64,000 nt of DNA from Cyanobacteria bacterium P01_E01_bin.6 (GTDB lineage Bacteria; Cyanobacteriota; Cyanobacteriia; CAKZMO01): the NCBI GenBank assembly GCA_039194035.1, contig JBCCWF010000001.1:3970-67969 (forward strand). Direction: 5' to 3'. The first letter of the stretch is position 1, and the number at the start of each line of letters is the position of its first letter. The notes under the pieces are model-generated. The model was not told where the DNA came from. It saw nothing but the letters and a program-made list of their open reading frames with translations, and did not search any database. The translations under genes and the position numbers were made by a program. Shown here one piece after another: positions 2,716 through 41,014 of the stretch.

Positions 2716-3813
2716 TTATTCAATCTTCTCTAAAAATGCTTCAGTCGCTTGAGCTTCGCTAATGTGTTTCTGGTACGTACTGAGATAAACACTTGGATCA
2801 TGCCCCAACCATTTGGCCGATACTGCTGTAGGGAAACCATATTTCAAGGCCGCTCGGATTGCGAATGCATGGCGATAGCTATATGGTTTATGTGGGTTCT
2901 TCTGACGAGTAAACGCTCTGGCAGTGCGATCGCCATACTCTTTATTGGTTCTGACTTTTAGATTAGGTGGACTGCCTTCGGCTAACTCCCACCGTTCAGC
3001 CCATTCTGGTGGCAATGGTGGAATCGATTTCCTGGCTCCGGTTTTGCCATCTGTGATTTCACACATCATCACCGTGCGATCGCCCGTATCAAGACTCACA
3101 ACTTTCGCAAACCAAACTTCATGATCTCTGAGTCCATATGTTGCCATCATTGCGGCGACATGTTTCCACTCAGGATTTTTCATTGAGTCGATCGCTTTCT
3201 CGATTTCTTCATCACTTGGAATATCACGATCGACATTTCTAGGATTGTAGTTTCCTTGATACGGCTTGAGATCGATTTTAATTCCAGCGAACTCGGCAAG
3301 TTTATTCATTCGCTGGCAGCATACTTGCCGACTACGGCTATCAACCTTGGTTTTTTGAACTGCCAAAATAATTGCATCAGCAGTGAGATCGGATTTTGGG
3401 TTTAGTTTTGTAAAGGCTGGATACCAGAATCGCTCTTTCCAATCAATTTCCGCTTGTTCTCCAGTGGTCTTGATGAGGTTTTGCAGAGCATATTTTTTGA
3501 ATGCTTCTATCCATGCTTGGCAGCTATCGGCGTTATGGCGATCGCCCTGCACTTCCAGCCAGCTAAATCGCTTCTGTGCAATCAGTGCCCCAAGCTCCAT
3601 GGCTTTAGACTCGGCGTACTCCAGTCCCGCTGGATTAGCATAGATTTTGAGGCTAATCTCTTGCTGATGTGCCTTCAATTTCCCGCTTCCTGGCTTCGGC
3701 GGCAACGTTCCCCTAAGATAGAGTCGCTCCCCTCGCTGCATCACCACCAACCCAGCAGCGGACGCTCTAAGCCGTTGATTGACAGCCTCCAGAGTTAGCT
3801 TGCGCTTCACCAT
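2716..3813 (-). CDS. int: tyrosine-type site-specific integrase/recombinase
   Basis: The C-terminal catalytic region carries R...HxxR...Y-type residues (YSYRHAFAIRA ... LGHDPSVYLSTYQKHI). Length 365 aa. Adjacent to a tRNA. Confidence 0.85.
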   Translation of the reverse strand: MVKRKLTLEAVNQRLRASAAGLVVMQRGERLYLRGTLPPKPGSGKLKAHQQEISLKIYANPAGLEYAESKAMELGALIAQKRFSWLEVQGDRHNADSCQAWIEAFKKYALQNLIKTTGEQAEIDWKERFWYPAFTKLNPKSDLTADAIILAVQKTKVDSRSRQVCCQRMNKLAEFAGIKIDLKPYQGNYNPRNVDRDIPSDEEIEKAIDSMKNPEWKHVAAMMATYGLRDHEVWFAKVVSLDTGDRTVMMCEITDGKTGARKSIPPLPPEWAERWELAEGSPPNLKVRTNKEYGDRTARAFTRQKNPHKPYSYRHAFAIRAALKYGFPTAVSAKWLGHDPSVYLSTYQKHISEAQATEAFLEKIE

Positions 3814-3930: not shown

Positions 3931-4003
<73 letters not shown>

Positions 4004-17389: not shown

Positions 17390-19570
17390 TTACATCCTCA
17401 CAAATCGGATAAAATGGCCTGACCGCAAGTCTCGGTCATACCAAGAACAAATGAGGCCATTGGCTCCGGGGTAGACGGAGCCAGGAGAAATTTGCCGAAC
17501 CCATTGTCCCTGGTGATGACGTAGCTCAAACAACTGCACGGTGCCCAGATACTGAACGCCTGGAGCCTGTTGAATCAGAGCAATCACATCAGATGGGTAA
17601 ACCGGACGCCCAAACGACCAACCCGTGCCGTCTTCCCCGCCAGTAATGGGATTCAAAAAGCGGTAGAGGGTCGCCAGCAACGATTGCTGCACCGCATCCT
17701 GTGCCTGGGGAGATTGGTAGGCTGGGGCGAGACCAATTTCGGCTCGCACCGATACGCCGACATAGGTTGGCTGCTCCAACACCACCTGGGTTCCCAGGAG
17801 CTTTCGTTCATCGAGATAGGTTGTCAGGTGAGTTCGGAGGCTGGGGGTGAGGATGAACTGATCCGGTGCAATCCCCTGTCCTTGGGTGACGCCTGTGGTG
17901 GGAACCTGGGGAACCACCAAAACCTTGACAGTTCCAGCTTCCATAGCGGACTGGGCCGACAGGCATCGTGCCTGGGCGATCGCCCCTTCGCCGCCTCGCA
18001 TCACCAAGGCCTCAAAATCTTCGGGAGTGACGGCGCGATCGCGGCTCCGCAATAGCTTTGGCACCCGCATGACCGCTTGTTCGAGGGATTCTGCATCGAC
18101 TCCGTAGCGAGTTGGGTCATGGTTCACCACCTCAGCCACGTAGGGAATCGCGGTTTTCAGAACCCGCACGGTTCCCGCCTGAACATTGCCCCGCACACCA
18201 CCACCTGTCCGATAGCTCACCATCCGCAGCACCGATCCTCGGGGCGGAATCGCGCCATATTGATGTTCGGTTGATACGGCGGGTGCGGTTGCCGTTTGGC
18301 CATAGTCTTGAATTTGGAGACGCACCTGAGTCGCATTCGGCCCGTGAGATGGTTCTCGAATACGGGGGCCAAACTGCACCGTGCCTGCTTGTGAATCGAG
18401 TACGTAATGATGACTTTCTGGAGTGGAATCGGCAAAATCAGCAACTTCATGCCATTGCTGGGGCAATCCGTCAGGTGGCTGTACTTCTAGATACTCGCCA
18501 TCTCGGCGGGGCAACACAGGATGATTCAATAGCTGAAACGTCTGATTAGACGTACCATCGCTGATGCCTAACAATTCATCGCGAATCAGGGTGGCTTGGC
18601 TGGCGCGAACCGAGCCGCCAATGGCTCTCACGGAGAGTCCGACAATGCGAGGCGATCGGCTGTAGGCAGGTTGAGCAGGTGTTGACGGAATACACACACA
18701 CCGAATCCATCGCCCCCGATAGGTTGAAAACGCAGACACAGGCCAATGCTGCGGTAGATGGAGAACCACATCCCCTCCCTGGAGAGGATCCAGGCCTTCT
18801 TCGGTGATCGTGCTAAAGCTAAATCCTTGAGTTCCGTCATCCTCTTCTGTTCGCAGAATGGATGTCCAGGCTGTGCCATCCCATGCTTCCCATCGACGGG
18901 GAGGTGCACTTGGATTAATGCCAGTGGCCGTGGCAGCTTCTCCTTTGACCGTGAGAGAAAGAACGTTGCCATCTAATACTTCATCCGGTTCAAAGACCAA
19001 ATAAAACGCGTTGCCCGATGCGGGTTGATCATCAAAGAGGAGTTGTTCTGGCCCATCCCATCCCCCATCCGGATCTTGAATCCAGCGATTGGTGAGGCGA
19101 TCTCGCAGGGTTTGGGGCACCTCTTCAGTAAGGGAAGAGGTAAGAAAATGCTGGAGATGGGGCTTCCCGACCCGCAATGGACGATCGGTTGTAAATACCA
19201 CGGCCTCTTCTGTTTCCGTGCGCATGGTTGCGACCTCAATTCCGGCTGGAATCATGTAGGGTTCGGGCAGTACCGTATTGAGATAGAAGGTAAGATCGGC
19301 TTGGGCCGGAAGCGGAGGCTGTAGACGAATGCCTAAGAGTTCCAGAAATGAGACATATTGACGGCGTGGTACCTGGTTAAACCGTAGGAGCATTTGCTCC
19401 GTCATCCATCCAAACAGTTCAATCAGCGTCATGCCTGGATCGCTGGGATTGAAATTTGTCCACTCTGGGCAATAGCGAGGAATCCGTAACCGAGATTCGA
19501 CCATCAAGTCATCGAGCTTGCGGTCATCCAGATCCGATTTAGGCAGATTGGGCAAAAAATTGAATTCCAT
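17390..19570 (-). CDS. baseplate J-like protein (gp6-like; TIGR02243 putative baseplate assembly protein)
   Basis: The N-terminus (DLDDRKLDDLMVESRLRIPRYCPEWTNFNPSDPGMTLIELFGWMTEQMLLRFNQVPRRQYVSFLELLGIRLQPP) is a near-textbook match to the TIGR02243/baseplate_J N-terminal signature. Length 726 aa. Confidence 0.75.
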   Translation of the reverse strand: MEFNFLPNLPKSDLDDRKLDDLMVESRLRIPRYCPEWTNFNPSDPGMTLIELFGWMTEQMLLRFNQVPRRQYVSFLELLGIRLQPPLPAQADLTFYLNTVLPEPYMIPAGIEVATMRTETEEAVVFTTDRPLRVGKPHLQHFLTSSLTEEVPQTLRDRLTNRWIQDPDGGWDGPEQLLFDDQPASGNAFYLVFEPDEVLDGNVLSLTVKGEAATATGINPSAPPRRWEAWDGTAWTSILRTEEDDGTQGFSFSTITEEGLDPLQGGDVVLHLPQHWPVSAFSTYRGRWIRCVCIPSTPAQPAYSRSPRIVGLSVRAIGGSVRASQATLIRDELLGISDGTSNQTFQLLNHPVLPRRDGEYLEVQPPDGLPQQWHEVADFADSTPESHHYVLDSQAGTVQFGPRIREPSHGPNATQVRLQIQDYGQTATAPAVSTEHQYGAIPPRGSVLRMVSYRTGGGVRGNVQAGTVRVLKTAIPYVAEVVNHDPTRYGVDAESLEQAVMRVPKLLRSRDRAVTPEDFEALVMRGGEGAIAQARCLSAQSAMEAGTVKVLVVPQVPTTGVTQGQGIAPDQFILTPSLRTHLTTYLDERKLLGTQVVLEQPTYVGVSVRAEIGLAPAYQSPQAQDAVQQSLLATLYRFLNPITGGEDGTGWSFGRPVYPSDVIALIQQAPGVQYLGTVQLFELRHHQGQWVRQISPGSVYPGANGLICSWYDRDLRSGHFIRFVRM

Positions 19571-24173: not shown

Positions 24174-24641
24174 TTATCGTTGACCAACTTTGAGTGCGTC
24201 AATAAAGAGTGAAAGATAATGATTGACTAACGCCGCTTCTCCAGGAATCATTTGCTCAGTGACAACAGTCTTCATCGCAATATAAAATGCAACCGACTGC
24301 TCTTCCTTGTGCAAAGAAAATAGTATGTTTTGCATCCAAAGGATAAGTTCTTCAATAAATCCATTCTCATCATCTTTAAGAATAGAGAGCGCCACATAGC
24401 GAAGAACATGACTCATGTCACGTTTACAGATATCGCTGTGTTGCTGGATAACCTGCCGATTAGACGGCATCAAGCTCCGGAGAGTCTTTATAATGAGCGT
24501 GTCTTTGTTCTCCTGCAAATAGCGATAGGTGCTGATTCGTTGTGTATAACTGTTAACAAAATTTTGAACAGTAGATAATTCCGAATCTTGTAGATACCGA
24601 CCCTCAGCATTGCTAAGTTCCTTAAAGATTATATTGCTCAT
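24174..24641 (-). CDS. phycobiliprotein-family (allophycocyanin-like) protein, orphan
   Basis: Pattern AEGRYLQDSELSTVQNFV ... DICKRDMSHVLRYVALSIL parallels phycocyanin (AADSQGRFLSSTELQ ... KCARDIGYYLRIVTYCLV), including the bilin-attachment Cys context. ~155 aa. Confidence 0.45.
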   Translation of the reverse strand: MSNIIFKELSNAEGRYLQDSELSTVQNFVNSYTQRISTYRYLQENKDTLIIKTLRSLMPSNRQVIQQHSDICKRDMSHVLRYVALSILKDDENGFIEELILWMQNILFSLHKEEQSVAFYIAMKTVVTEQMIPGEAALVNHYLSLFIDALKVGQR

Positions 24642-26352: not shown

Positions 26353-26430
26353 TAATGATAAGGTTTGGCGATCGCGTCCTTTGCCTCAGAGACAACCTCT
26401 CTCAGCACCGTTTACATGATTGGAAAAGTT

Positions 26431-26467
26431 GAGCGATTGAGGCACGCTCAGCGTGCCTCAATCGCTC
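26431..26467. terminator. perfect 17-bp-stem hairpin GAGCGATTGAGGCACGC-TCA-GCGTGCCTCAATCGCTC
   Basis: Seen in the sequence downstream of the SBP gene. No T-run, so it may be a structural or processing element rather than a classical terminator. Confidence 0.4.
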
Positions 26468-26816
26468 ATTTCTTCGTAATGAGACAGTCTTCTATGCAAA
26501 AACAAGATGCTGCAACAAGATGCTGCGTTGTGGCATAGTCCTTCAACACAATGTTGTGTCTCTATGCGCATCGCGAATTGTTTTTATGATTTAACTGCAT
26601 AACCACCCTGCAAATGAAATGGATGATACAAATTTTGCAAGGTAAAAGGCGAAAATCTCTTAACCAATTAAGAAAGCCTACGCCTTATCTATCAACGCTA
26701 AAAATACTGATTGGCTTGCTTTTGAGGGCATCGTTAGCGATCGCCTCTCGACAATAAGCACAAGCTACGTTCACAAGACTGACTAACGTTCTGAGATCTT
26801 TCCAAATACCTGCTCT

Positions 26817-28634
26817 ATGGTTTCGTCTGCCTATCGCTTTCTCGGCTCAATTAAGCTTGCTGTGCCTCTCTTGGCTGCCATCGTTGGCATTCTGATTTGG
26901 GCAACACTTTATGAGTCAACTGTTGGGTCTGCCCTCGTCCAGCAAGAGGTTTACAAAAGCCCTTGGTTTGGAGCGTTGATGTTTATGCTGGCCATGAACT
27001 TGGGCGTGTCAGCCATTAGTCGATACCCCTGGAAAGGCACTCGAAAGGTCGGCTTTGCCCTAGCGCATTTGGGACTCATTGTTCTGATTGCAGGCTCAGC
27101 AGCGGTCATTCACCTGAGTGTAGAAGGCATGATGCTGCTTCGAACCGACCAAGGCGCAAATAGCCTAGTCCGTGTGGACGGGGATTTATTAGACGTGGTC
27201 ACTCCTGATGGGCAGTCTGTCCAGACAGATCTGATGATCAAGCCTGACAACTCAATCATTCCGTCTCGCGTTGCAGGGTTGACTATTCTAGGCTACGAGG
27301 AAAATACGATTCGCACGGTCAGTTTTGAGGAAGGAGAAACGGTCGAAAATCCCGCCGTACGCATCAGTCTCAAGAGCGATCGCATGGGGCAGCTGACGGA
27401 GCGCTGGCTGGCGGCATCTCCCTCCATGTATCAGCAAGAAAATCTTGGCCCCGTGCGGCTTGAATTGTTACGGGTCAGTTCTGACGACGTTCTCCAGCAC
27501 TATTTGGCTGCGCCTGATGCACCCACTGCTGCAGGGCGATTTGGGACGCTGACCGTGACGGTTGATGGGAATGGGCGATCGCTCGACATTGAATCGTTTT
27601 TACAGACGCCTGTGGAGGTCACGCCAGACATCACCCTCACGGTGATGGAGTTTTGGCCAGACTTCCGGTTAGATGCTCAAAATCAACCTGCTACAGCATC
27701 ACAGCAGTTGCGGAACCCCGCTGTACAGCTTGATGTTTCCCGTGGAGAGAATCAAGAGCGTTGGTTTGTTTTTGCCAGTAGTGAGTTCGATCCTGTTCGC
27801 ACGGTCGTATCCGGATCAAGCCTGGAAAATATCGATATTCAATATGCGGCACAACCTCAGCGCCAGCAAAATCTCTTCCAGGTCATTGCTGCGCCTAACG
27901 AAAAGTTCTTCTATACAGCCCAATCATCGAAAGCGTTTACGTCTGGATCGTTGGACGTAGGTCAACCCATCTCCCCTGGCTGGGTTGATTTTCAGATCAC
28001 CCTGGAGGACGTGGTGTCCCATGCCGTGCCCAATCGTCAGGTGATTCCCGTAGACGCCAATGAAATCCAGGGTTCTCCATCGCTCCAGGTCGCCACACCC
28101 GATGGCGAAACGCATTGGTTGACCTGGGCAGAACCGACCACTCTGTCTACTCCGTCTGGGGATTACTTCGCGGCGTTTAGCCCCAAAATGCTGCAGTTGC
28201 CCTTTGCAGTCGCGCTTGATGATTTCATCGTGGAACGCAATGAGGGAAGTGAGTCTGTGGCCATGTGGACGAGTCAGATTCAGATCCAAGATGCTCACCG
28301 AGGAGAACTGAGTGAGCGACGAGTATGGATGAATCACCCAACCTGGTATCAGGGATGGAAAATGGCTCAGGCCTCCTGGAATCCTGGGGATTTACGCCAA
28401 TCAACCTTACAGGTGAAACGGGAACCATGGTGGGTCACCGCCCTGACGTGGAGCGGTTCTTTACTGGTTGTGATGGGTATTGTGGTGATGTTCTATGGCG
28501 CTTCTGTGGTGAAAGCGGTGAATAAGGTCCTGCCAACGACTTCTACTGATCCATCGATGAACGAAAAGACTCAGGGAAATGCAGAGGGCGATCGCCCTCC
28601 AGTTCCCGCTCCAGCATTGATTACCCAAGACTAG
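26817..28634 (+). CDS. ccsB: cytochrome c biogenesis protein CcsB/Ccs1 (ResB family)
   Basis: N-terminus YRFLGSIKLAVPLLAAIVGILIWATLYES is the ResB/Ccs1 signature. Large soluble central domain, C-terminal TM. 605 aa. Confidence 0.8.
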   Translation: MVSSAYRFLGSIKLAVPLLAAIVGILIWATLYESTVGSALVQQEVYKSPWFGALMFMLAMNLGVSAISRYPWKGTRKVGFALAHLGLIVLIAGSAAVIHLSVEGMMLLRTDQGANSLVRVDGDLLDVVTPDGQSVQTDLMIKPDNSIIPSRVAGLTILGYEENTIRTVSFEEGETVENPAVRISLKSDRMGQLTERWLAASPSMYQQENLGPVRLELLRVSSDDVLQHYLAAPDAPTAAGRFGTLTVTVDGNGRSLDIESFLQTPVEVTPDITLTVMEFWPDFRLDAQNQPATASQQLRNPAVQLDVSRGENQERWFVFASSEFDPVRTVVSGSSLENIDIQYAAQPQRQQNLFQVIAAPNEKFFYTAQSSKAFTSGSLDVGQPISPGWVDFQITLEDVVSHAVPNRQVIPVDANEIQGSPSLQVATPDGETHWLTWAEPTTLSTPSGDYFAAFSPKMLQLPFAVALDDFIVERNEGSESVAMWTSQIQIQDAHRGELSERRVWMNHPTWYQGWKMAQASWNPGDLRQSTLQVKREPWWVTALTWSGSLLVVMGIVVMFYGASVVKAVNKVLPTTSTDPSMNEKTQGNAEGDRPPVPAPALITQD

Positions 28635-28761: not shown

Positions 28762-30507
28762 ATGAAACCTTGGAAATTTCTGATCGGTCTGCTCCTCGGA
28801 GCGCTCATTCTCATTCTCCCGTTGAGCCAATTTCAGCCCGATCCGCTGGATTCGCTCAAAACACTGACTGTTCAGCTTGACGGACGAAAGAAGCCACTGG
28901 ATACCGTGGCACTCGAAACCGTTGAAAAACTCCATGGGTCTACCCACTACAAACAGGCAGATGGAGAGACTCTGAACTATCTGCAAACGTATCTTTCAAT
29001 GGAAGTGAATGATCGGGATTGGAATCAAGAACCGTTCATTTTGTTTAGCTATCGCCCTCTCAAAGAAGAGATTGGCCTCGAACCAGAGCGTAAATACTTT
29101 AGCTTCCGTGAATTATTAAATTCTGAGCCACTGGCTCGGGTCGTCAATGATGCACACCGCAGGCAACTTTCCGATGAGGATCTAACCCGCAATGAGCGCG
29201 AAGCGCTCACGATTGAGGACCGCGTTACGCTCTTGTTCAGAACCGTGGGCACAAGTAGCTTGCCGCTGGTGCCCCATCCAGATGATGTGAAAGGAGCCTG
29301 GGCAACCATCCCCGATGCTCCCAAGCTCTATGAACCTGACCAGGTTGCTCCAGTGATGGCTCAGTTTGAGCTACTCAAACGAGCCTATCGAATGAGCCGC
29401 GATCATTCGGATGCGGTTGGTATGATGGCCTCAGAACTTCATCAAGGGTTAGCCGCTCTGAGTCCAGCCGTATATCCAGGCGATCGCACCATGGCTCGGG
29501 AAGTGTATTACAACGGTTTCCACCCCTTTGCAAAAGCTTGGATGCTTTATGGCGCAGCTTTTCTCGTGATGTTAGGTGCGCTTTGGGTCAAATCATTGGA
29601 ACGTTTTGGGCTTTATTGGACATCCCTCGGTTTATTTGTGGCAGGTATTGGCCTCCAAACCTACGGCTTTTTCTTACGGATGCAAATTGCGGGACGCCCT
29701 CCGGTCACCAACATGTATGAGTCGGTGGTCTGGGTCGGACTTGGCGTGGCGGCGATCGCCCTTCTGTTTGAACTGACCTCGCGCGCGAAGTACTACCTAC
29801 TGGCGGCGGCTCCTCTATCGGTGCTCTGTCTGGTGCTTGCCGATCGGTTGCCAGCGGTTCTCGACCCGAGCATTTCTCCATTAGTTCCAGTGCTGCGCGA
29901 TAACTTCTGGCTTAGTATCCATGTCCCGACCATTACTCTCGGATATGCAAGCTTCGCCCTCGCCATGGGGCTGGGGCATGTCGCCCTTGGTCATTATTTG
30001 TTTGCACCAGCGGCAAAAGAGCGCATTCGCACCATTGCCCAATTCAACTATCGCGTTCTCCAAGTTGGCGTGCTGTTGCTGACCACTGGCATCATCCTCG
30101 GGGGTATCTGGGCTCACTTCTCGTGGGGACGCTTTTGGGGCTGGGATCCAAAAGAGACCTGGGCACTCATTGCCCTGATGTGTTATCTCGTTCCCTTGCA
30201 TGGACGATTGGTCGGGTGGATTAGCAACTTTGGTATTACCGTCACCAGTGTGGTGTCATTTAATGCCGTGCTGATGGCATGGTACGGCGTCAACTTTGTG
30301 TTGGGAACAGGCCTACACAGCTATGGATTTAGCACGGGTGGATCAGAGCTGATCGTTGGTGCATTTGTCGGCCTCGACTTGTTATTTGTCTTGGTTGCAG
30401 CCATCCGTCATAAGCAATGGTGGCCTCAGTTCGCGTCATCCCAAGGTAATGCGGTAGAGCCATCTCTAACTGCTGAGTCTATTCCGAGTGCGTCAGAATC
30501 TGCTTAA
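28762..30507 (+). CDS. ccsA: cytochrome c-type biogenesis protein CcsA (heme lyase subunit) with ~250-aa N-terminal periplasmic extension
   Basis: WWD domain [29 protein letters not shown]. Multiple TM helices with conserved His. N-terminal signal/TM plus extra domain. 581 aa. Confidence 0.8.
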   Translation: MKPWKFLIGLLLGALILILPLSQFQPDPLDSLKTLTVQLDGRKKPLDTVALETVEKLHGSTHYKQADGETLNYLQTYLSMEVNDRDWNQEPFILFSYRPLKEEIGLEPERKYFSFRELLNSEPLARVVNDAHRRQLSDEDLTRNEREALTIEDRVTLLFRTVGTSSLPLVPHPDDVKGAWATIPDAPKLYEPDQVAPVMAQFELLKRAYRMSRDHSDAVGMMASELHQGLAALSPAVYPGDRTMAREVYYNGFHPFAKAWMLYGAAFLVMLGALWVKSLERFGLYWTSLGLFVAGIGLQTYGFFLRMQIAGRPPVTNMYESVVWVGLGVAAIALLFELTSRAKYYLLAAAPLSVLCLVLADRLPAVLDPSISPLVPVLRDNFWLSIHVPTITLGYASFALAMGLGHVALGHYLFAPAAKERIRTIAQFNYRVLQVGVLLLTTGIILGGIWAHFSWGRFWGWDPKETWALIALMCYLVPLHGRLVGWISNFGITVTSVVSFNAVLMAWYGVNFVLGTGLHSYGFSTGGSELIVGAFVGLDLLFVLVAAIRHKQWWPQFASSQGNAVEPSLTAESIPSASESA

Positions 30508-30518
30508 GGAGGAAACCG

Positions 30519-31001
30519 ATGGATCGTCGTAAATTTTTGAACTGGGTGGGTTTGGGAGCCTTGGCAACATCGCTTCCGGTGGCGATCGCCGCTTGCCAAT
30601 CCGAGTCATCATCCCCAGCCGATACAGCATCAGATTCTCCAGAATCATCTGCTGCGTCATCTGAGGTGGGGACGGTTCGACCCGACGGCTCATTTGTTGT
30701 GGGTACTGTTGCCGATTTAGATGAAAATGGAGTCCTCAAAGGCCGACCAGCGTTTTCCTCTGGAGCTGTTCTTGTGATTCGTGCTCCCGACGCTGCAGAT
30801 ACCCTTTATGTCGTGGACTCCCTTTGTACCCATCAGGGTTGCTCTGTTGATTGGGAATCATCAGCTTCTGAATTTGCTTGTCCGTGTCATGGCTCAACTT
30901 TTTCAGCGGATGGCAGCGTGACGACTGGTCCGGCAACGGATCCTCTGGCTACATTCCAAGCCACGATTGATGGTGAGCTTGTCTTGGTTCAACCAAGCTA
31001 G
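30519..31001 (+). CDS. Rieske [2Fe-2S] protein with Tat signal and probable lipobox (periplasmic lipoprotein)
   Basis: MDRRKFLNWVGLGALATSLPVAIAAC (twin-Arg plus lipobox-like IAAC). Ser-rich linker. Rieske boxes CTHQGC ... CPCHGS. Confidence 0.8.
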   Translation: MDRRKFLNWVGLGALATSLPVAIAACQSESSSPADTASDSPESSAASSEVGTVRPDGSFVVGTVADLDENGVLKGRPAFSSGAVLVIRAPDAADTLYVVDSLCTHQGCSVDWESSASEFACPCHGSTFSADGSVTTGPATDPLATFQATIDGELVLVQPS

Positions 31002-31011
31002 TCAGTAAATG

Positions 31012-31104
31012 GCCATTATTAAACGTGCTGTTCCAACCCCTATGCCGCCTTCGCAGTGGGCGGCATAGGGGTTGGGGATTTGGTTTCATTCTGTCCAGGT
31101 ACGT
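31012..31104. repeat. MITE-like repeat family A copy 3 (hairpin variant CCCCTATGCCGCC / GGCGGCATAGGGG)
   Basis: TTAAACGTGCTGTTCCAA...GGTTTCATTCTGTCCAGGTAC. Confidence 0.6.
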
Positions 31105-31189: not shown

Positions 31190-31522
31190 ATGGATGATAA
31201 AAAACAGCTTTTAGCTCAAACAATGGCGTTGTTAATGTCAACAACACCTGAAACAACACTGGGTCGATTTTTGAATTTTTGCCTTGCTACGAAAGTTGAA
31301 ACGGCGATCGCCCACAAGACTCCCTTTGAAATAGCTGAAGAATTAATGGAGCATCCTGAAAAACTCTCCCAATGGATCTCTGAAACAATTGATGGCGATG
31401 ATGATTATACAGTTGATGAAATGGTTGCCCTTTCAGATATGCACATCCAAAATCCTCATACTTTCATGGCTCAATTAATAGAAGAATTGAATCAAATTCA
31501 GTTGGACGACGTAAATCCTTAA
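31190..31522 (+). CDS. hypothetical acidic protein
   Basis: ORF only. Confidence 0.3.
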   Translation: MDDKKQLLAQTMALLMSTTPETTLGRFLNFCLATKVETAIAHKTPFEIAEELMEHPEKLSQWISETIDGDDDYTVDEMVALSDMHIQNPHTFMAQLIEELNQIQLDDVNP

Positions 31523-31650
31523 ATCACTGTTCAATTACTTAGGTAATGAGAGCTTTCTACTTGCTCCCCATCAATCATGCGGCGATGCCAGGATGCTTTC
31601 CTAAAGCGACCTTGTAGATGCGTATTCTTTTTACTTGTGATTTTTCATTG

Positions 31651-31690
31651 AGCGATCGCCATAAACAATTAAATGTTTGTGGCGATCGCT
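31651..31690. promoter_or_regulatory. near-perfect palindrome built around two HIP1 sites (AGCGATCGCCATAAACAATTAAATGTTTGTGGCGATCGCT), ~300 nt upstream of the globin gene
   Basis: Seen in the sequence. Candidate operator. Confidence 0.3.
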
Positions 31691-31979
31691 TTCTTCCTAT
31701 TGGTTAAAGGGAAAGGCATGTTATGTCAAAAAGGTGAGAAATGATTAAAGATCTGACATCGATTCGCATCGATGCGGTTTATGCAACTCGTGCAAGCAAG
31801 TTCTGCATGACCTGCTGGTATTTGTATCAGAAAATGCAAAACAGCTCATTTTTTTTTCGTAATCTCTCATCTTGATAGCAGTGTTTTTCATCCATACACT
31901 TGCCAGAAAAGCATCTTTTATTTGCGTGAAATTTGCCTCAAAAAAGTGCTTCTCTATGTGTCGCCAAGGAGTCTAGGTC

Positions 31980-33014
31980 ATGTCTCTTCAAGTTGAACTT
32001 CTCGAAACAAGTTTCGAGAAAGTTAAGCCCCATGCTAATGAATTCGTTACGAGTTTTTATGACAATTTGTTCGCTGACTACCCTGCAGCAAAACCCCTGT
32101 TTGAGCACACCGATATGCCCAAACAAATACAGCAGCTTAAGGGGGGGCTCGTCATGGTGGTGGAGAATCTGCGCAACCCTGAAGTGCTCACCAAAGCGCT
32201 TGGTGGACTCGGCGCTCGCCATGTCAAGTATGGTGCGCTGCCTGACCATTACCCCCTAGTCGGCAACAGTCTGCTCAAAACCTTTGATCAGTACCTCAAG
32301 GAAGACTGGACGCCCGAGGTTAAGCAGGCTTGGGTTGACGCCTACGGCGCGATCACCGCGCTGATGCTCGAAGGCGCTGATTACTCTGAGGAACAGGTGG
32401 ATCTCTCTGCGGCTCCCCCTGCGACAGCCGCAGCGGCTGTCGACGAACCTGCCGAAGAGTCAGGCGGGTTGAAGGTTGAACTGTTAGAAGAAAGTTTTGG
32501 CAAGGTTGCGCCCCAGGCCGACGAATTTGTGGCAAGCTTCTACGACAATCTGTTCACCGACTATCCGGCATCCAAGCCACTGTTTGAGCATACCGATATG
32601 CCCAAGCAAATGCAGCAGCTCAAGGGTGGTTTGGTCATGGTGATTCAAAATCTGCGCAAGCCTGAGGTGCTCAGCAAGGCTCTGGGAGGGCTGGGTGCAC
32701 GACACGTAAAATATGGTGCGTTGCCAGAGCACTATCCACTCGTTGGGAACAGCCTGCTCAAGACATTTGGTCAGTATCTCAAAGAAGATTGGACCCCTGA
32801 GGTGAAGGGCGCGTGGGTCGATGCCTATGGTGCCATTACTGCGCTCATGTTGGAAGGAGCTGATTATTCCAAGGAAGACGTTCAGCTTGAGACTCCAGTT
32901 GCTGCGGTTGCCACTGCTGCTCCGCAGGAAGATGACGGGTCCAATGTTGCGCCTATTGTCGGTGGTCTTGTGGGTGGCGGCATTCTAATTGCTCTTTTGC
33001 TTATTCTTCTTTAA
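31980..33014 (+). CDS. tandem two-domain globin (bacterial haemoglobin-like) with C-terminal hydrophobic membrane anchor
   Basis: Two ~150-aa repeats ~80% identical to each other. Each resembles Vitreoscilla Hb (FYDNLFADYPAAKPLFEHTDM ... LGARHVKYGALPDHYPLVGNSLLKTF ... AWVDAYGAITALML). C-terminal tail PIVGGLVGGGILIALLLILL. Confidence 0.7.
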   Translation: MSLQVELLETSFEKVKPHANEFVTSFYDNLFADYPAAKPLFEHTDMPKQIQQLKGGLVMVVENLRNPEVLTKALGGLGARHVKYGALPDHYPLVGNSLLKTFDQYLKEDWTPEVKQAWVDAYGAITALMLEGADYSEEQVDLSAAPPATAAAAVDEPAEESGGLKVELLEESFGKVAPQADEFVASFYDNLFTDYPASKPLFEHTDMPKQMQQLKGGLVMVIQNLRKPEVLSKALGGLGARHVKYGALPEHYPLVGNSLLKTFGQYLKEDWTPEVKGAWVDAYGAITALMLEGADYSKEDVQLETPVAAVATAAPQEDDGSNVAPIVGGLVGGGILIALLLILL

Positions 33015-33031
33015 GACAACAGTGATAAGTT

Positions 33032-33685
33032 ATGGCGTTCAATTTTGGAAGAATGCTTAGACGAAAATCGTTCTTCAGTCTTCAAACGGCCATTATTGCT
33101 GCTGGCATTATTTTACTGGTTGGGCTTGTTGGGGTCTTCGCGCTGGAAACGGATCAGCAGACGATCTTCTTACCTGGTGAAACATCTGAAGGCCATTTTT
33201 TGTTTGAAGCATCCTGTGCATCCTGTCATGAGGGGTTTAAGCCGGTGACGAACGAGACATGCATGCGTTGTCATGAAGCCGAAATGGCGGACGACAAGCA
33301 TGGCCCCAAGAAGTTTCGTGATCCTCGTTGGGCTGCTGACCTCGAAAAGCTTGAAGTGTTGACCTGTACAACTTGCCACAACGAACATGTGCATATGTTT
33401 GGGCGGGGTGTTCATCTTCAGCCAGATTTATGTATGGCTTGTCATCAGGGCATCATTGAGGGCGATATGCAGAGCCATGACGGATTTACTCCTGATGGCT
33501 GCTGGACAGCAGGGTGCCATAACTTCCACGATCACCGTTCGATTTCCACTGGGTTCCTCGCTGACACGCTCGATCAGCCTCCGATGTTGCCTGTTCAGGA
33601 GCTGCCAATCCTGGACGTGATAACAACACTGGACTCAGCACCCGACGCTGATTTGTGGGATGAGTTTTTAGGAGGTGAATCATGA
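33032..33685 (+). CDS. membrane-anchored pentaheme c-type cytochrome (four CxxCH + one CX4CH)
   Basis: N-terminal TM IIAAGIILLVGLVGVFAL. Heme motifs CASCHE, CMRCHE, CTTCHN, CMACHQ and CWTAGCH. Confidence 0.7.
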   Translation: MAFNFGRMLRRKSFFSLQTAIIAAGIILLVGLVGVFALETDQQTIFLPGETSEGHFLFEASCASCHEGFKPVTNETCMRCHEAEMADDKHGPKKFRDPRWAADLEKLEVLTCTTCHNEHVHMFGRGVHLQPDLCMACHQGIIEGDMQSHDGFTPDGCWTAGCHNFHDHRSISTGFLADTLDQPPMLPVQELPILDVITTLDSAPDADLWDEFLGGES

Positions 33686-34485
33686 GGCGATCGCTCGTTC
33701 TCTTGGTTGCCATCCTGATGGGATTGGTCGGATATATGCTGGGACATCCACAGCCAGTCTTCGCTCATGCGTCTGAGGCTGACCTTCAGGAGATTCAAAC
33801 ACTCTGGGAAGGCAGTGTTCATGCTCTGGCTGATGTGAATTGCTCAAGTTGTCATCAGCAGGATGAGACGAATGCATTTATTGCTCATCCTGATCATGAA
33901 AGCTGTCAATCCTGTCATGACGCACAGGTCGATACTTTCTTACTCGGGAAACACGGGATCCGGTTGTTCGAAGGGATGAGTCCACTGACTCCTGCCATGG
34001 CTCGATTGCCGATGAAGGCTGACGCGCACAATCGCCAAATGACCTGCAATACTTGCCATGATGTTCATTCGGTCAATACCGTGCAAGCCTCTGTTGACTC
34101 GTGTCTGACCTGCCATAACGATACACACTCGTTGAACTATGAAAATTCCAGACACGCTGAGCTGTTTATGGCGGATCAAGGCTTGCCTCGCCCGTCAAGC
34201 CAGGCCGTCAGTTGTTCGACCTGCCATATGCCCCGCCAAGATTTGGGTAGCCCGAGCAGCCCCCAAGTTGTGGTAAATCACAACAACACGTTTACCCTAT
34301 TACCGCGCGATCGCATGGTCATTGAAGTCTGTATGAACTGCCATGGCGTTGAGTATAGCTACAACAGTATTTTTGACGATGATTTGGTAGAGGCAAATTT
34401 CGACAAGCCTCCTAGCCTATCGCTAGAGACCTTTGACTTGGTGCGTACCTTTGAAAAACAGCGTACCAGCCAGGATAGCGAATAA
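33682..34485 (+). CDS. periplasmic hexaheme c-type cytochrome
   Basis: Signal peptide. CSSCH, CQSCH, CNTCH, CLTCH, CSTCH, CMNCH. Start overlaps the upstream stop (ATGA), indicating translational coupling. Confidence 0.75.
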   Translation: MRRSLVLLVAILMGLVGYMLGHPQPVFAHASEADLQEIQTLWEGSVHALADVNCSSCHQQDETNAFIAHPDHESCQSCHDAQVDTFLLGKHGIRLFEGMSPLTPAMARLPMKADAHNRQMTCNTCHDVHSVNTVQASVDSCLTCHNDTHSLNYENSRHAELFMADQGLPRPSSQAVSCSTCHMPRQDLGSPSSPQVVVNHNNTFTLLPRDRMVIEVCMNCHGVEYSYNSIFDDDLVEANFDKPPSLSLETFDLVRTFEKQRTSQDSE

Positions 34486-34610: not shown

Positions 34611-35276
34611 ATGTTTATGAAAACTATCAATCAATGGATGGATGCGATTCGCACCCGGACAGTCGCATTCATTGCGATTATCCTAGCGGTTGCAGTTACT
34701 GCAATTTCTTGTAGTGGTAGTCCTGCTCCCGACGCAGGAGAAACCGTTAGCGGCATCTCTCCCGAAATCGTTGTGGATTATATTCATACGGTTGCTGCAT
34801 CCGATCGGACGGCTTACACCAAGCATGTTGTGGCTCGTCTGAAAACATTGGAAGGCAACGATAAGCCAGATGGTGTTGTTCCAGCTGAAGCCACCGAAGC
34901 TTGGCAGCAAACCGACGGTATTCCACTCCCCGCTCAGATGTTCCGACTCGGAGCAGAGCTAGCGTCAGAAGGTGGCGATTTTACCATTGGTCTCATTTCC
35001 CCTTGGAATATTAATGACAGCCAGGCTCCGAAGGGAGAATTTGAAGAAGTTGGGATGCAGGAAGTGATTGACACTGGTGAACCCTACAAAGGGTATCAAG
35101 AAATTGGTGGTCAACAATACTATTCTGCAATTTACCCCGACCCTGCGGTTGCCGATGCCTGTGTCAGCTGTCACAACAATCATCCGACCCATCAGGAACG
35201 GTATCCAGACAAAGTGTTCGAACTGAATGATGTGATGGGTGGCGTTGTCATCAACCTTCCTCTAGAGGGTGCTTAA
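34611..35276 (+). CDS. c-type monoheme protein, Tll0287/DUF3365-like PAS-type heme sensor domain; N-terminal anchor or lipoprotein signal
   Basis: Single CVSCHNNH motif near the C-terminus, as in Tll0287-like proteins. ~220 aa. N-terminal hydrophobic segment ending ISCSG. Confidence 0.5.
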   Translation: MFMKTINQWMDAIRTRTVAFIAIILAVAVTAISCSGSPAPDAGETVSGISPEIVVDYIHTVAASDRTAYTKHVVARLKTLEGNDKPDGVVPAEATEAWQQTDGIPLPAQMFRLGAELASEGGDFTIGLISPWNINDSQAPKGEFEEVGMQEVIDTGEPYKGYQEIGGQQYYSAIYPDPAVADACVSCHNNHPTHQERYPDKVFELNDVMGGVVINLPLEGA

Positions 35277-35451: not shown

Positions 35452-36279
35452 TTGTTCCGACACGCTTATCATCCAAGACCCATGAAACCCAGGTTTTCAA
35501 CGCTCATTCTCCTAACTCTTTTAACGGCCATTATTTTGGTTCCGTTTGCCCTAAGCAGCACCTATCTGCCGCTGTTGCGCGATCGCGCATTTACGCTATA
35601 CGAGCTGTTTCGGACTGACCTGTATAAGCAAATTACGGGGTTTGTACTGTTGGCGCTTGTGCTCGCAGAAATGGGCTTAGCGCTCAGGAAGCGAGGCCGG
35701 AAGTGGAAGGTTAAATTGCCAGGAACGATGATGCTTTGGAGAAGTGTTCACATTTTCTTGGGCGTCTTCTTAATTGCAGCCGTTTTGGTTCATACCATCG
35801 GCTCAACTGGGTTGAATTTCAATGCGGTTTTTTTATGGGTGTTTTTTGGTGTGGCGCTGACTGCTCTGATTGGCGTGGTGGCAGAGACCGGTATTTTGGA
35901 AACCGATGTTGTTCAGGTGTTACGACTCCGGTTCTTGCGCCGCGATGGATTCGTTAAGCCAGCACCTGCTGGTTCCGTCGCCAAGCTGACTGGAGAGATG
36001 GCGGCGGCCCATTCACCTGACCAGTTCGTCGGCAGCGTATCGGCCTCTCCTGCAACCGTGTCCATTGGGCAACCTAGTATGGTGGCTGGCAACCCTGAAC
36101 CCGAGCCGATTTTCACCCCCGAAGGAGCCGCAAAACTTCCGTGGGTCATTGCAGCGATGTCAAAAGGCCCTATTATTCGAGGGCTTCGGGCGATTTGGCT
36201 GTCGTCTCATATTTTCCTTGTGAGTGTGTTTACAATCATGCTCGGCTTCCATATTTTCCTCGCGTTTTATTATCAATAG
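35452..36279 (+). CDS. polytopic membrane protein with conserved His in TM helices (possible b-type heme or ferric-reductase-like membrane subunit)
   Basis: TM helices containing WRSVHIFLGV ... LVHTIG and SSHIFLVS ... FHIFLAFY. Confidence 0.35.
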   Translation: MFRHAYHPRPMKPRFSTLILLTLLTAIILVPFALSSTYLPLLRDRAFTLYELFRTDLYKQITGFVLLALVLAEMGLALRKRGRKWKVKLPGTMMLWRSVHIFLGVFLIAAVLVHTIGSTGLNFNAVFLWVFFGVALTALIGVVAETGILETDVVQVLRLRFLRRDGFVKPAPAGSVAKLTGEMAAAHSPDQFVGSVSASPATVSIGQPSMVAGNPEPEPIFTPEGAAKLPWVIAAMSKGPIIRGLRAIWLSSHIFLVSVFTIMLGFHIFLAFYYQ

Positions 36280-36297: not shown

Positions 36298-36774
36298 ATG
36301 GCTTCTGGACGTAGTGAACCGCCAGCAATGCGACGCATTGGTGTCACGTTTATTGTTCTGATTGGGTTTGCAATTGCAACCTTTTTTCTAACCCGCCCAG
36401 TCACAGCCTCGTCAAGCATGTCCCCTGTCTCTGGCCTGGTGATGCTGAAAGCCATGGCACAGGCATCCGTTCCCTATGAAGAGGCGATCGCCAGCGGTAA
36501 ACCCACCTTCATGGAGTTCTACGCAGACTGGTGCACGACTTGTCAGTCCATGGCATTAACGGTTGCGGAGCTGCACACTCACTATGGGGCAGATCTGAAT
36601 TTTGTCATGCTGAATATTGACGACCCCAAATGGCGATCGCAAGTTGAACAATTTCATGTCGGTGGAGTCCCTGAGTATTTCTTACTGGACAACGACCAAT
36701 CAATACATCGCTCGTTTATTGGTCGGGTTCCTTACGGGATTATGGCTCAATCCGTAAATAATCTAATAAATTAA
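36298..36774 (+). CDS. thioredoxin-like thiol:disulfide oxidoreductase (CcsX/ResA/TlpA-like, membrane-anchored)
   Basis: N-terminal TM then the thioredoxin fold with WCTTCQ (CxxC) active site. Confidence 0.65.
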   Translation: MASGRSEPPAMRRIGVTFIVLIGFAIATFFLTRPVTASSSMSPVSGLVMLKAMAQASVPYEEAIASGKPTFMEFYADWCTTCQSMALTVAELHTHYGADLNFVMLNIDDPKWRSQVEQFHVGGVPEYFLLDNDQSIHRSFIGRVPYGIMAQSVNNLIN

Positions 36775-37634: not shown

Positions 37635-38552
37635 TTGACTGTTATGCAACCGATGACTTCGAAAGCACTCATCCGCCTTGTGGGAGTGTTGCTCATGACA
37701 CTCCTCCCGTATGGATGTAGCACTGTTGGCAAAATGGCATCACTTCCAAGCGTGGTTGCTCAACGGTCAGATACCGTTGATGTCAGCGATCGCATTCAAC
37801 CCTTTGCCCAGGTAGATGTGGTGTATCTCGGGGAGACCCATGACAGCACTGCTGATCATGATGCTCAGCTACAGATTGTTCAGGCACTCTACGCCCAAAA
37901 TCCAGAGATGGCGATCGCTCTGGAAATGTTTCAACACCCTTTCCAGGAAAGTCTGGATAACTATATCAGTGGCACTATCGACGAAGAAACGCTTCGCGAA
38001 CAAACTCAATATGACTTGCGATGGGGATTTCCATGGGAATACTACGCTCCGATACTGCGTTTTGCGAGAGAGCATCAAATTCCGTTGCTTGCTCTCAATG
38101 CTCCATCCGAAGTTGTGAGTAAGATTGCCCGCGAAGGACTCGACAGTTTAAGCGAATCAGAGCAACAGGTCATTCCTCCCCGGTCAGAAATCCGAACTGA
38201 CAACGAGGGCTACCGTGAATACGTTGGGGCCGTGTTTGGACATGCGCACCACAGTGGCCATTCTGGCATGAGTTTTGAGAATTTTTTCTCGGCTCAAGTG
38301 GTTTGGGATGAAACGATGGCTGAACAGATTACTGCGTTTCTTACCCGTGAGCCTGGCCATCAAGTGGTGGTGCTGGCGGGTCAAGGCCATGTGATTTACG
38401 GCTATGGCATTCCAGATCGAGTGGCTCGTCGGTTGGGTGACTCCATCGAGCAATATACGATCTTGCTCAATCCCATCGGGGAGTTCCTTGATGAAGGAGA
38501 AGGGGCGATCGCTGATTCCTTTTGGTTCAGTGAAAATGGACAGAAGCCATAA
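37635..38552 (+). CDS. ChaN-family (Tiki/haem-binding uptake, PF04187-like) lipoprotein
   Basis: Lipobox LLPYGCST. Conserved VVYLGETHDSTADHDAQLQIVQAL ... ALEMF and GHAHHSG motifs typical of ChaN/DUF399. Confidence 0.6.
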   Translation: MTVMQPMTSKALIRLVGVLLMTLLPYGCSTVGKMASLPSVVAQRSDTVDVSDRIQPFAQVDVVYLGETHDSTADHDAQLQIVQALYAQNPEMAIALEMFQHPFQESLDNYISGTIDEETLREQTQYDLRWGFPWEYYAPILRFAREHQIPLLALNAPSEVVSKIAREGLDSLSESEQQVIPPRSEIRTDNEGYREYVGAVFGHAHHSGHSGMSFENFFSAQVVWDETMAEQITAFLTREPGHQVVVLAGQGHVIYGYGIPDRVARRLGDSIEQYTILLNPIGEFLDEGEGAIADSFWFSENGQKP

Positions 38553-39916: not shown

Positions 39917-41014
39917 TTGGGAGAGATACGAATGGATCTGGTCACACTTCAAGGTTGGCTTGACAATGCGTCCTTTGCCGTCATGTTCGCAACGATGTTG
40001 ATCTACTGGGTTAGCGCTGCATTTCCTGGTCTGTCTGTGCTGAGCAGCTTGGGAACAACTGGGATGGCGATCGCCAACTTGTTGATAGCAGCCCTCCTCA
40101 CCGCTCGCTGGATAGAAGGCGGATACTTCCCATTGAGCAATTTGTATGAGTCCCTATTTTTTGTGGCCTGGGGCATCACGGCGGTTCATTTGCTGGCAGA
40201 GCGCATGAGCCAGAGCCGTTTGGTTGGGACGGTTACAGCGCCTGTTGTCATGGGAATTACAGCATTTGCAGCGCTCTCGTTGCCCGACACAATGCAGACA
40301 TCAGAGCCACTGGTGCCTGCTCTCAAGTCCAATTGGTTGATGATGCATGTCAGCGTGATGCTCATCAGCTATGCGGCTCTGATGGTTGGGTCTCTGATGG
40401 CGATCGCCTTTTTGGTGATCACACGAGGCCAAGCGGTTGAGCTAAAAGGGAGTTCGGTGGGAACAGGAAGCTTCCGAACTAGACGGGAAAAGTTGAAACC
40501 GATTCAATTACCAGAAGATGGAGAGATGTCGTCATCCATTCCCAGTGAGTCCTTGCTGTCGTCCCCGGCCCAAGCTTTTTCTCCCTCTTCAGGGGCCACA
40601 GCTGTCTTAGCGACATCTCCCGTGGCAACTGCTGCGAGCAAGCAGACCTCCATTCCTTCCCCTATAGCGGCTGCACCCCTATCTCCCCAGCGATTGACCT
40701 TGGCAGATACCTTGGACAACATTAGCTATCGCATCATTGGATTAGGATTTCCACTCCTCACCATCGGCATTATTGCCGGAGCGGTTTGGGCCAATGAAGC
40801 GTGGGGGTCTTACTGGAGCTGGGATCCAAAGGAAACATGGGCGCTCATTACGTGGTTAGTGTTTGCGGCCTATCTCCATGCTCGCATTACCCGAGGATGG
40901 CAGGGACGTCGTCCTGCGATCCTTGCCGCGTCAGGATTTTTTGTGGTGTGGATTTGCTATCTCGGCGTCAATATTCTGGGCAAGGGACTGCACAGCTATG
41001 GCTGGTTTTTCTAG
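39917..41014 (+). CDS. ccsA: CcsA-family cytochrome c biogenesis protein, second paralogue, with Ser/Pro/Ala-rich insertion
   Basis: WWD domain [29 protein letters not shown]. Internal low-complexity insert [36 protein letters not shown]. Confidence 0.7.

Follow-up and report, generated by a model that had tools for sequence, protein, structure and literature searches.

INTRODUCTION

PetC3, the "periplasmic Rieske protein" (Prp) of cyanobacteria, has been known for more than 20 years. Its crystal structure has been solved (5CXM; Veit et al. 2016, as cited in PMC10172866 and PMC12341915), its potential has been measured, and the proteome of a mutant has been recorded, with disturbed nitrogen-related functions mentioned in PMC10172866. 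The protein is periplasmic and anchored to the plasma membrane via a lipidated N-terminal cysteine, and its midpoint potential (Em) is +135 mV (PMC10172866). Published work locates it at the plasma membrane or in the periplasm, outside the cytochrome b6f complex (PMC10172866, PMC12341915), and with a homologue from PCC 7002, a reporter was directed to the inner membrane on its periplasmic side (PMC12341915); the function of PetC3 was described as unresolved in papers from 2023 and 2025 (PMC10172866, PMC12341915). Here, we analyzed a stretch of 64,000 nucleotides (nt) from Cyanobacteria bacterium P01_E01_bin.6 (contig JBCCWF010000001.1; the whole stretch is termed the window herein) that carries a gene for a 160-amino-acid Rieske protein of this type at positions 30519 to 31001, placed directly behind ResB- and CcsA-like cytochrome c maturation genes and next to a cluster of multiheme cytochrome, globin, and putative di-heme b genes.

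A periplasmic Rieske lipoprotein of the PetC3 type is already known and not in itself novel. What looks new is the conserved association of such a protein with a second ResB/CcsA pair and with the multiheme, globin, and di-heme b cluster. No description of this cluster or of its link to PetC3 was found in the open-access literature, a scope that does not include the primary PetC3 paper or the subscription literature. The canonical PetC3 genes of Synechocystis salina and Trichormus variabilis have unrelated neighborhoods, and the model strains studied so far lack the context described here, which may explain why a link would have been missed in them. A dedicated PetC3 paralogue beside a second synthase and multiheme cytochromes provides a concrete, testable partner hypothesis for the family, and it draws attention to a cluster that is widespread in cyanobacteria.

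RESULTS

The Rieske protein is a member of the PetC3/Prp family

The gene and the parts of its product lie at the following positions of the window (Tat, twin-arginine translocation).

30506..30512, + strand: Shine-Dalgarno sequence AAGGAGG, 6 nt 5′ of the Rieske ATG (read from the sequence)
30519..31001, + strand: PetC3/Prp-family Rieske [2Fe-2S] lipoprotein, 160 amino acids (sequence, fold, phylogeny)
30519..30596, + strand: predicted Tat signal peptide, with RR at residues 3 and 4 within DRRKFLN, up to the lipobox IAAC (motif conservation)
30597..30683, + strand: flexible Ser/Ala/Pro/Glu-rich tether, residues 27 to 55 (composition, alignment, model confidence)
30684..30998, + strand: Rieske domain (Pfam, AlphaFold2 model, Foldseek, alignment)
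30825..30842, + strand: cluster box I, C103-T-H105-Q-G-C108 (read from the sequence)
30879..30890, + strand: cluster box II, C121-P-C123-H124 (read from the sequence)

The open reading frame (ORF) starts with ATG, and Pfam places the Rieske domain at residues 60 to 146 of its product (E value, 7.9e-13); at E values of ≤10, the only other Pfam family reported was a weak match to TM_PetC. The N terminus, MDRRKFLNWVGLGALATSLPVAIAAC, contains the twin arginines and the lipobox I23-A24-A25-C26, with Cys26 as the predicted lipidated N terminus. The tether that follows holds 10 serines in 29 residues and varies in length and sequence across an alignment of 20 homologues, in which R3, R4, A22, I23, A24, A25, and C26 are invariant, as are the ligand and disulfide cysteines (C103, C108, C121, and C123) and H105 and H124. 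The Pro loop of the domain reads G137-P138-A139. In the AlphaFold2 model, block means of the predicted local distance difference test (pLDDT) are 89 to 97 for the domain; the signal and tether are modeled less confidently, with means of ∼50 for residues 21 to 40 and 75 for residues 41 to 50.

The assignment of the Tat and lipoprotein signal rests on motif conservation among homologues. Across 83 of them (∼37 to 72% identity), the RR motif is retained in 80 and a lipobox [IL][AT]AC in 82, and RR and Cys are always 21 apart where this could be scored (80 proteins); because motifs and spacing are held so constantly, the pattern is, as judged from these sequences, far beyond chance. A Rieske protein of 160 residues, carrying a twin-arginine signal, a lipobox-like IAAC, and a linker rich in Ser, had been read from the DNA letters beforehand (the original prediction), and this description is borne out by the domain match and the motif counts, which also support the proposed type of a Tat-exported Rieske lipoprotein.

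At an E value of ≤1e-5, 591 Rieske homologues were found, and all named ones within the best 120 are cyanobacterial. The best sequence match in the PDB is Synechocystis PetC3 (5cxm_A; phmmer E value, 6.8e-19), followed by an anammox Rieske protein and then by b6f PetC2 and PetC1 (∼5e-15); AioB (7e-7), bc1 (6e-6), and oxygenase ferredoxins (3.5e-5) match far more weakly. Foldseek likewise ranks 5cxm_A first for the predicted model (TM-score of 0.92 normalized to 5CXM, root mean square deviation of 1.3 Å, and 39% identity), then a Chlorobaculum Rieske domain (TM-score, 0.75), with b6f chains reaching only ∼0.46. In neighbor-joining trees, all Tat-lipobox Rieske proteins grouped together, to the exclusion of the PetC1-like, PetC2, and anammox outgroups, in 99% of 200 bootstraps. 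Members of this clade are the window protein, 5CXM, and the proteins of Synechocystis salina, Nostoc, Trichormus, and Spirulina; the trees were built on short alignments (∼117 columns), with fragmentary outgroups taken from PDB alignments. The RR and lipobox signal is also present in the named PetC3 proteins of Nostoc, Trichormus, and Synechocystis, and the Nostoc/Trichormus signal peptide, MKRRDF[LI]NWVGLG..ASSLPVAIAAC, is near-identical to that of the window protein. Since sequence, predicted fold, phylogeny, and signal peptide agree, the protein is a member of the PetC3/Prp family. The earlier description of it as not PetC-like is therefore wrong if taken as relatedness, since its closest relatives are PetC3 and then b6f PetC1/2. 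The phylogeny against PetC that had been proposed as a check does set it apart from PetC1-like and PetC2 proteins, and it places it with PetC3 and 5CXM.

With PetC3 (Sll1182 of Synechocystis PCC 6803, the 5CXM protein; A1097 of Synechococcus PCC 7002), the window protein shares the fold, the RR and lipobox signal, and the clade, as well as Phe in place of the cluster-proximal Tyr and a place outside the b6f complex. It differs in retaining Ser where Synechocystis PetC3 has Ala after CPCHG, which predicts one more hydrogen bond to the cluster, and in its longer tether, which takes 35 residues to reach the conserved Gly of GTV from Cys26, versus 12 to 16 in canonical PetC3 sequences. The gene context differs too: the window gene closes a dedicated ResB-CcsA unit by a multiheme cluster, whereas the Synechocystis salina and Trichormus genes lie in unrelated contexts. 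The second and third structural matches, the soluble Rieske domain of Chlorobaculum tepidum (8HN2) and the anammox Rieske protein kustd1480 (9RK3), are compact, low-potential Rieske domains; they belong to membrane-anchored subunits of Rieske/cytochrome b complexes, unlike the situation in the window, where the candidate membrane partner is not of the Rieske-complex cytochrome b family.

Two other identities were weighed. Many database names would make the protein an alternative b6f Rieske subunit: homologues are named "cytochrome b6-f complex iron-sulfur subunit" in their sources, the next-best sequence relatives are b6f PetC proteins, and the NCBIfam PetC models align across residues 1 to 158. 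PetC1 and PetC2 also share with the window protein the bc-type boxes CTHxGC and CPCHG with their disulfide cysteines and a Tat-type N terminus. The scores, however, are only 74.1 bits for NF045928 (cutoff, 250) and 75.1 bits for NF010001 (cutoff, 154), and the anchor model TM_PetC (PF25471) gives 13.2 bits against a cutoff of 37.1 bits, which supports the earlier statement that a b6f-type transmembrane anchor is missing. The sole hydrophobic segment is predicted to be cleaved, given the conserved lipobox, in place of an uncleaved anchor; the larger subdomain of b6f Rieske proteins is missing, in line with the low TM-scores to b6f chains; Phe replaces Tyr, the gene context is different, and PetC3 has been located outside the b6f complex. 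Family scores, anchor model, and fold size led us to reject a b6f PetC subunit, and we consider such an isoform highly improbable. Even less credence can be given to a small Rieske subunit of a periplasmic molybdoenzyme (AioB-like) or an oxygenase Rieske ferredoxin. AioB is a Tat-exported Rieske protein outside bc complexes that relays electrons between its periplasmic enzyme and c-type cytochromes or cupredoxins, and the Tat signal and weak matches to AioB (E value, ∼1e-6) and to oxygenase ferredoxins (∼4e-5) would fit this identity. Against it, the AioB model TIGR02694 gives 34.4 bits (cutoff, 95.65), the NCBIfam ferredoxin models give 28 to 33 bits (cutoffs, 113 to 150), and box II, CPCH with both disulfide cysteines, follows the bc pattern, whereas oxygenase ferredoxins have CXXH. 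The latter are also cytoplasmic, unlike the window protein with its export signal. No AioA, other molybdopterin, or oxygenase gene flanks the Rieske gene, whose neighbors are the ResB/CcsA paralogues and an ORF without a known family, just as had been predicted for the oxygenase context.

The Rieske gene closes a ResB-CcsA unit beside a multiheme cluster

Upstream of the Rieske gene, and directly behind it, lie the following elements.

26430..26468: terminator-like hairpin, 5′ of the ResB-like gene
26817..28634, + strand: ResB/Ccs1-like cytochrome c biogenesis protein, 605 amino acids, first gene of the unit (Pfam ResB; E value, 6.9e-16)
28762..30507, + strand: divergent second CcsA, 581 amino acids (Pfam Cytochrom_C_asm; E value, 1.6e-29, residues 316 to 514 only)
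31031..31077, + strand: terminator-like hairpin (stem of 20 bp), 30 nt past the Rieske stop

The gap from the CcsA stop to the Rieske ATG is 11 nt, the Rieske Shine-Dalgarno sequence overlaps the TAA stop (30505..30507) of the CcsA-like gene, and the two hairpins, which are the strongest terminator-like ones in the region, bracket ResB, CcsA, and the Rieske gene. This arrangement places the Rieske gene in one transcription unit with ResB and CcsA and not in the globin-cytochrome one, and the hairpin at 31031..31077 likely marks the end of the unit. A promoter scan was uninformative (9 sites versus 12.7 expected), and an Rfam scan of the 64-kb window returned one tRNA only (3931..4003, − strand) and no regulatory RNA near the cluster.

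The window contains two CcsA copies with 35 to 42% identity, confined to conserved blocks. The canonical copy (39917..41014, + strand; 365 amino acids), 9 kb 3′ of the cluster, scores 354.8 bits with TIGR03144, over the cutoff of 187.6, versus 153.8 bits for the copy upstream of the Rieske gene, which falls under it. Judged by its sequence, the CcsA adjoining the Rieske gene is a divergent paralogue and not the housekeeping copy, and we infer that it is a cluster-dedicated subunit of a System II cytochrome c synthase. The position given in the original prediction, between ccsA and the globin-cytochrome operon, holds as far as the neighbors are concerned (CcsA-like gene at 28762..30507, globin and multiheme genes from 31980), with the correction that this ccsA is the divergent paralogue.

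The core cluster downstream consists of six genes.

31980..33014, + strand: tandem two-domain globin with a C-terminal hydrophobic tail, first gene of the core cluster (Pfam Globin; E value, 7.7e-36, two stretches)
33032..33685, + strand: MHC1, membrane-anchored five-heme cytochrome c (four CXXCH and one CX4CH)
33682..34485, + strand: MHC2, six-heme periplasmic cytochrome c (six invariant CXXCH and six invariant extra His)
34611..35276, + strand: Tll0287-like (DUF3365, sCache_heme) c-heme protein (Pfam E value, 4.8e-14)
35452..36279, + strand: four-His membrane protein, putative di-heme b conduit (H100/H114 and H253/H267; weak Pfam matches to cytochrome b561 and DUF4405)
36298..36774, + strand: membrane-anchored thioredoxin-like protein with a WCTTC motif, kept at the cluster end (Pfam Thioredoxin; E value, 9.1e-14)

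The CX4CH motif of MHC1 is C157-W-T-A-G-C162-H163. All five heme motifs of MHC1 and five further histidines are invariant, also when distant homologues are aligned, the CX4CH motif even in proteins of 33 to 35% identity (in the loci L152 and L155). Dedicated System II synthases have been documented for CXXCK and CX15CH motifs in Wolinella (PMC12285233), and the window resembles the NrfI and CcsA1 systems of Wolinella succinogenes in having a second, divergent CcsA beside a nonstandard heme motif; by analogy, a dedicated synthase may be needed for the CX4CH site. The Wolinella synthases differ in lacking a Rieske gene, and in the window, ResB and CcsA are separate proteins, not fused.

The linkage is conserved but not obligatory

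Two surveys of gene neighborhoods, each of at least 80 loci, were made, one based on the Rieske protein (one genome per species plus added contigs, two duplicate loci removed) and one based on MHC2; the selection leans toward the query used, and "absent" here means absent from the retrieved flank, not from the genome. The order ResB-CcsA-Rieske was found in 58 of the 76 Rieske loci with enough flank, with a median CcsA-Rieske gap of ∼100 bp, and the remaining 18 are stand-alone. Rieske proteins of the linked loci are ∼48 to 72% identical to the window protein. Wherever the flank of a linked locus is long enough, it carries the block of globin, MHC1, MHC2, Tll0287-like, membrane-protein, and thioredoxin genes, usually divergent to the Rieske unit and collinear with it in the window and its two closest relatives. 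Eight genomes have, besides a linked copy, a second PetC3 gene that stands alone; we conclude that the linked gene is an extra paralogue that has been retained.

When MHC2 was the query, the core block was constant, and a Rieske gene followed CcsA in 11 of the 20 scorable clusters. At two loci on metagenome contigs, L131 (∼4097 onward) and L151 (∼9746 onward), a gene for a PetC3-like lipoprotein of ∼140 amino acids follows the membrane-protein gene; the products combine RR and CPCH[AN]AK with a lipobox that reads VALAAC in L131 and VALVAC in L151, and they represent a second, independent joining of a PetC3-type protein to the cluster. The functional tie to the multiheme module that had been proposed thus gains from the conserved synteny, and it is not an obligatory one, the Rieske gene being missing from the other 9 of the 20 clusters.

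Linked and stand-alone copies interleave in the tree. A clean split between them was not resolved (∼117 columns, internal bootstraps of 11 to 34%), and given these bootstraps, we claim no distinct subfamily of linked Rieske proteins. At L067, an otherwise stand-alone Rieske gene is directly preceded by a 43-residue remnant of a CcsA C terminus (9771..9899), a remnant that speaks for decay of the cluster around a Rieske gene that was kept.

The stand-alone copies show lineage-specific contexts. In a subclade with 100% bootstrap support, the Rieske genes of L045 (4519..9973), L058, L060, and L062 lie directly behind genes for a di-heme cytochrome c peroxidase (CCP_MauG), a DAHL-domain protein, and a PBP-like protein, with a Cache-HAMP adenylate cyclase gene further upstream in L045, L060, and L062; the subclade also takes in L070, whose upstream genes differ. 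This is another c-heme context for PetC3-like proteins. In Trichormus variabilis (L168, 1..10411), the PetC3 gene is divergent from the nitrate assimilation genes nirA-nrtABCD-narB. In Synechocystis salina (L167), whose PetC3 is a close relative of the PCC 6803 protein, it lies beside genes for an ABC exporter and a PBP4-type peptidase, and no cytochrome genes were found within 10 kb.

Cluster environment and predicted redox properties

In 81 of the 83 family members, the window protein included, CPCHG is followed by Ser, the residue found there in b6f Rieske proteins, and the position of the b6f/bc1 Tyr is Phe in 83 of 83. In PetC3, both hydrogen bond donors to the cluster are lost (Ser to Ala and Tyr to Phe), and the potentials of Rieske proteins follow the number of hydrogen bonds, from ∼+300 mV with eight to +160 mV with seven (C. 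tepidum) and +135 mV with six (PetC3) (PMC10172866). Since the window protein keeps the Ser donor and has lost the Tyr donor alone, its sequence suggests seven hydrogen bonds and an intermediate potential, between the +135 mV of PetC3 and the ∼+300 mV of b6f.

Together, MHC1 and MHC2 have 11 heme motifs and 11 further invariant histidines, and on this count all eleven c-hemes may be bis-His ligated. Chains of bis-His c-hemes usually have low potentials, and Rieske centers lie well above them. Solved relatives of the two cytochromes were only marginal matches (best E value, 2.7e-4, to a hydroxylamine oxidoreductase [HAO]-like protein); MHC2 is common in cyanobacteria, where database entries name it only "hypothetical" or "cytochrome c3 family."

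The tandem globin resembles the globin domain of flavohemoproteins, has no signal peptide, and ends in the hydrophobic tail GGLVGGGILIALLLILL, from which it is probably tail-anchored and cytoplasmic. Elsewhere, the cluster globin is single-domain, and some clusters have a second globin gene. In the four-His membrane protein, the invariant His pairs lie 14 residues apart on two hydrophobic segments (alignment including L152 and L155), consistent with a putative transmembrane di-heme b protein. In these two metagenomic loci (MHC2, 37 to 39% identity), a single protein combines MHC1 and MHC2, genes for the Tll0287-like protein and the globin follow, and the membrane domain forms the C terminus of an NAD(P)H-flavoprotein (L155, 7353..9380; L152, 7338..9416) with Pyr_redox_2, a rubredoxin-reductase C-terminal domain, and a BFD-type [2Fe-2S] domain. 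Such a fusion suggests a transmembrane route for electrons through the membrane protein, which could link a cytoplasmic donor with the periplasmic heme chain. The thioredoxin-like protein is likely the thiol reductant for the apocytochromes. In a recent preprint, stand-alone Tll0287-type proteins were found to have a Cys/His-ligated heme and behaved as redox proteins rather than gas sensors (PMC12889525).

DISCUSSION

The identity of the Rieske protein, its motifs and fold, the order of the genes, and the conservation of that order were all observed; on the function of the protein, we lean, with moderate confidence, toward an accessory, membrane-tethered periplasmic one-electron carrier of the multiheme module. 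In this model, the protein would fold and take up its [2Fe-2S] cluster in the cytoplasm and leave by the Tat pathway with the cluster already inserted, an order of events that is established for Rieske proteins. Cleavage and lipidation at Cys26 would follow, and the flexible tether of ∼30 residues would hold the domain at the periplasmic face of the inner membrane and let it range there; the conserved motifs and the published work on PetC3 are the grounds for these export and lipidation steps. Here and in many Leptolyngbya-like cyanobacteria, the protein would be a dedicated paralogue, cotranscribed with the divergent ResB/CcsA pair, that joins the multiheme chain to a partner of higher potential by one-electron exchange. 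Within this presumed partnership, we tentatively propose that electrons flow from the multiheme chain to the Rieske protein, as their exit point, and on to the higher-potential acceptor, because the bis-His hemes would be of low potential and the Rieske Em above them. The reverse direction, with the Rieske protein feeding the cytochromes as the b6f Rieske protein feeds cytochrome f, could by analogy also apply. The original prediction had left the choice between an electron entry and an exit point; synteny supports the tie to the multiheme genes that both imply, and the sequence is compatible with either.

Several observations weigh against this carrier model. The Rieske gene shares its unit with maturation genes and not with the cytochromes. 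Of the MHC2 clusters scored, 9 of 20 have ResB/CcsA and no Rieske gene at the locus, Rubidibacter (L086) among them. In L122 and L140, the core cluster has flanks of 8 kb or more on both sides of MHC2 and neither a CcsA nor a Rieske gene, and Coleofasciculus (L085) has neither within 4.3 kb upstream and 10 kb downstream. L152 and L155 have neither a Rieske gene nor a private synthase. Stand-alone family members occur in unrelated contexts, no neighborhood common to all of them was found in the survey, and the tree does not cleanly part them from the linked copies. The protein might then be a generic PetC3 with the cell envelope role of its family, the multiheme neighborhood reflecting historical gene order without a direct functional link. 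Such a reading would account for the many contexts of the stand-alone members, the clusters without a Rieske gene, the interleaved tree, and the Rieske gene that outlived its neighboring CcsA at L067. It accords less well with a linkage that has been held in 58 loci despite the sequence divergence of their Rieske proteins, with the eight genomes that keep an unlinked second copy, so that the linked one is extra and retained, with the independent placement in the cluster at L131 and L151, and with the tight spacing in the window, where the Shine-Dalgarno sequence lies over the CcsA stop; we think this reading unlikely without dismissing it.

The same gene order could also mean that the Rieske protein serves cytochrome c maturation, e.g., as a periplasmic redox helper of ResB/CcsA that keeps the heme iron or a site of the synthase reduced. 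This reading would explain why the gene comes immediately after the CcsA paralogue, closer in the window (11 nt) than at the median of all loci, and why a hairpin separates it from the cytochrome genes, and rearranged ResB/CcsA clusters without a Rieske gene (L110, L114, L119, L124, L133, and L134) have been counted in its favor. Nevertheless, no Rieske protein is known to us to take part in System II maturation. Nine clusters have ResB/CcsA and no Rieske gene, the Rieske gene of L131 and L151 follows a membrane cytochrome gene and not CcsA, stand-alone paralogues have no CcsA nearby, and a review describes only synthases and thiol oxidoreductases in System II (PMC12285233), which makes a maturation helper improbable. 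A bolder extension of the carrier model, which we regard as distinctly doubtful, is that the Rieske protein, the di-heme b protein, and the eleven c-hemes would form an undescribed redox machine in the membrane of mat-forming cyanobacteria, analogous to a Rieske/cytochrome b complex and built from nonhomologous parts, or a transmembrane conduit between the quinone pool or periplasmic carriers and the tail-anchored cytoplasmic globin. The subclade of stand-alone copies linked to CCP_MauG fits the idea that PetC3-type proteins partner c-heme enzymes, and a machine or conduit of this kind, if true, would reveal the function of PetC3-type proteins as periplasmic partners of such enzymes.

By their record titles, many of the organisms with these genes are filamentous cyanobacteria that are benthic or live with mats, turfs, sponges, or stromatolites. 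For this reason, a role under nightly anoxia, sulfide, or nitrosative stress is plausible but unproven.

Other features of the loci and the window

Three further elements lie close to the cluster.

31190..31522, + strand: small acidic ORF, 110 amino acids, between the Rieske and globin genes (no Pfam or NCBIfam family)
31650..31691: hairpin past the acidic ORF
37635..38552, + strand: ChaN-like heme-binding protein (Pfam Cofac_haem_bdg; E value, 3.1e-75)

Homologues of the acidic ORF are present in the two closest relatives, L003 and L005, and are placed elsewhere in L087 and L127. The ChaN-like gene recurs at the cluster end in L003, L005, L087, L089, L092, and others. Just past the cluster of L108, a metagenome contig, the opposite strand carries a regular b6f Rieske gene of the PetC1-like kind (∼2900..3475, − strand), whose product has a transmembrane anchor and CTHLGC; this proximity is probably coincidental.

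Elsewhere in the window, an ORF for a phycobilisome-family protein (24174..24641, − strand) lies just upstream of the cluster region, and a baseplate J-like protein (17390..19570, − strand) is encoded in a run of large minus-strand ORFs that may be a contractile-injection or prophage-like block. Further downstream, at 47518..49683 (+ strand), an RTX-repeat/5′-nucleotidase protein is encoded.

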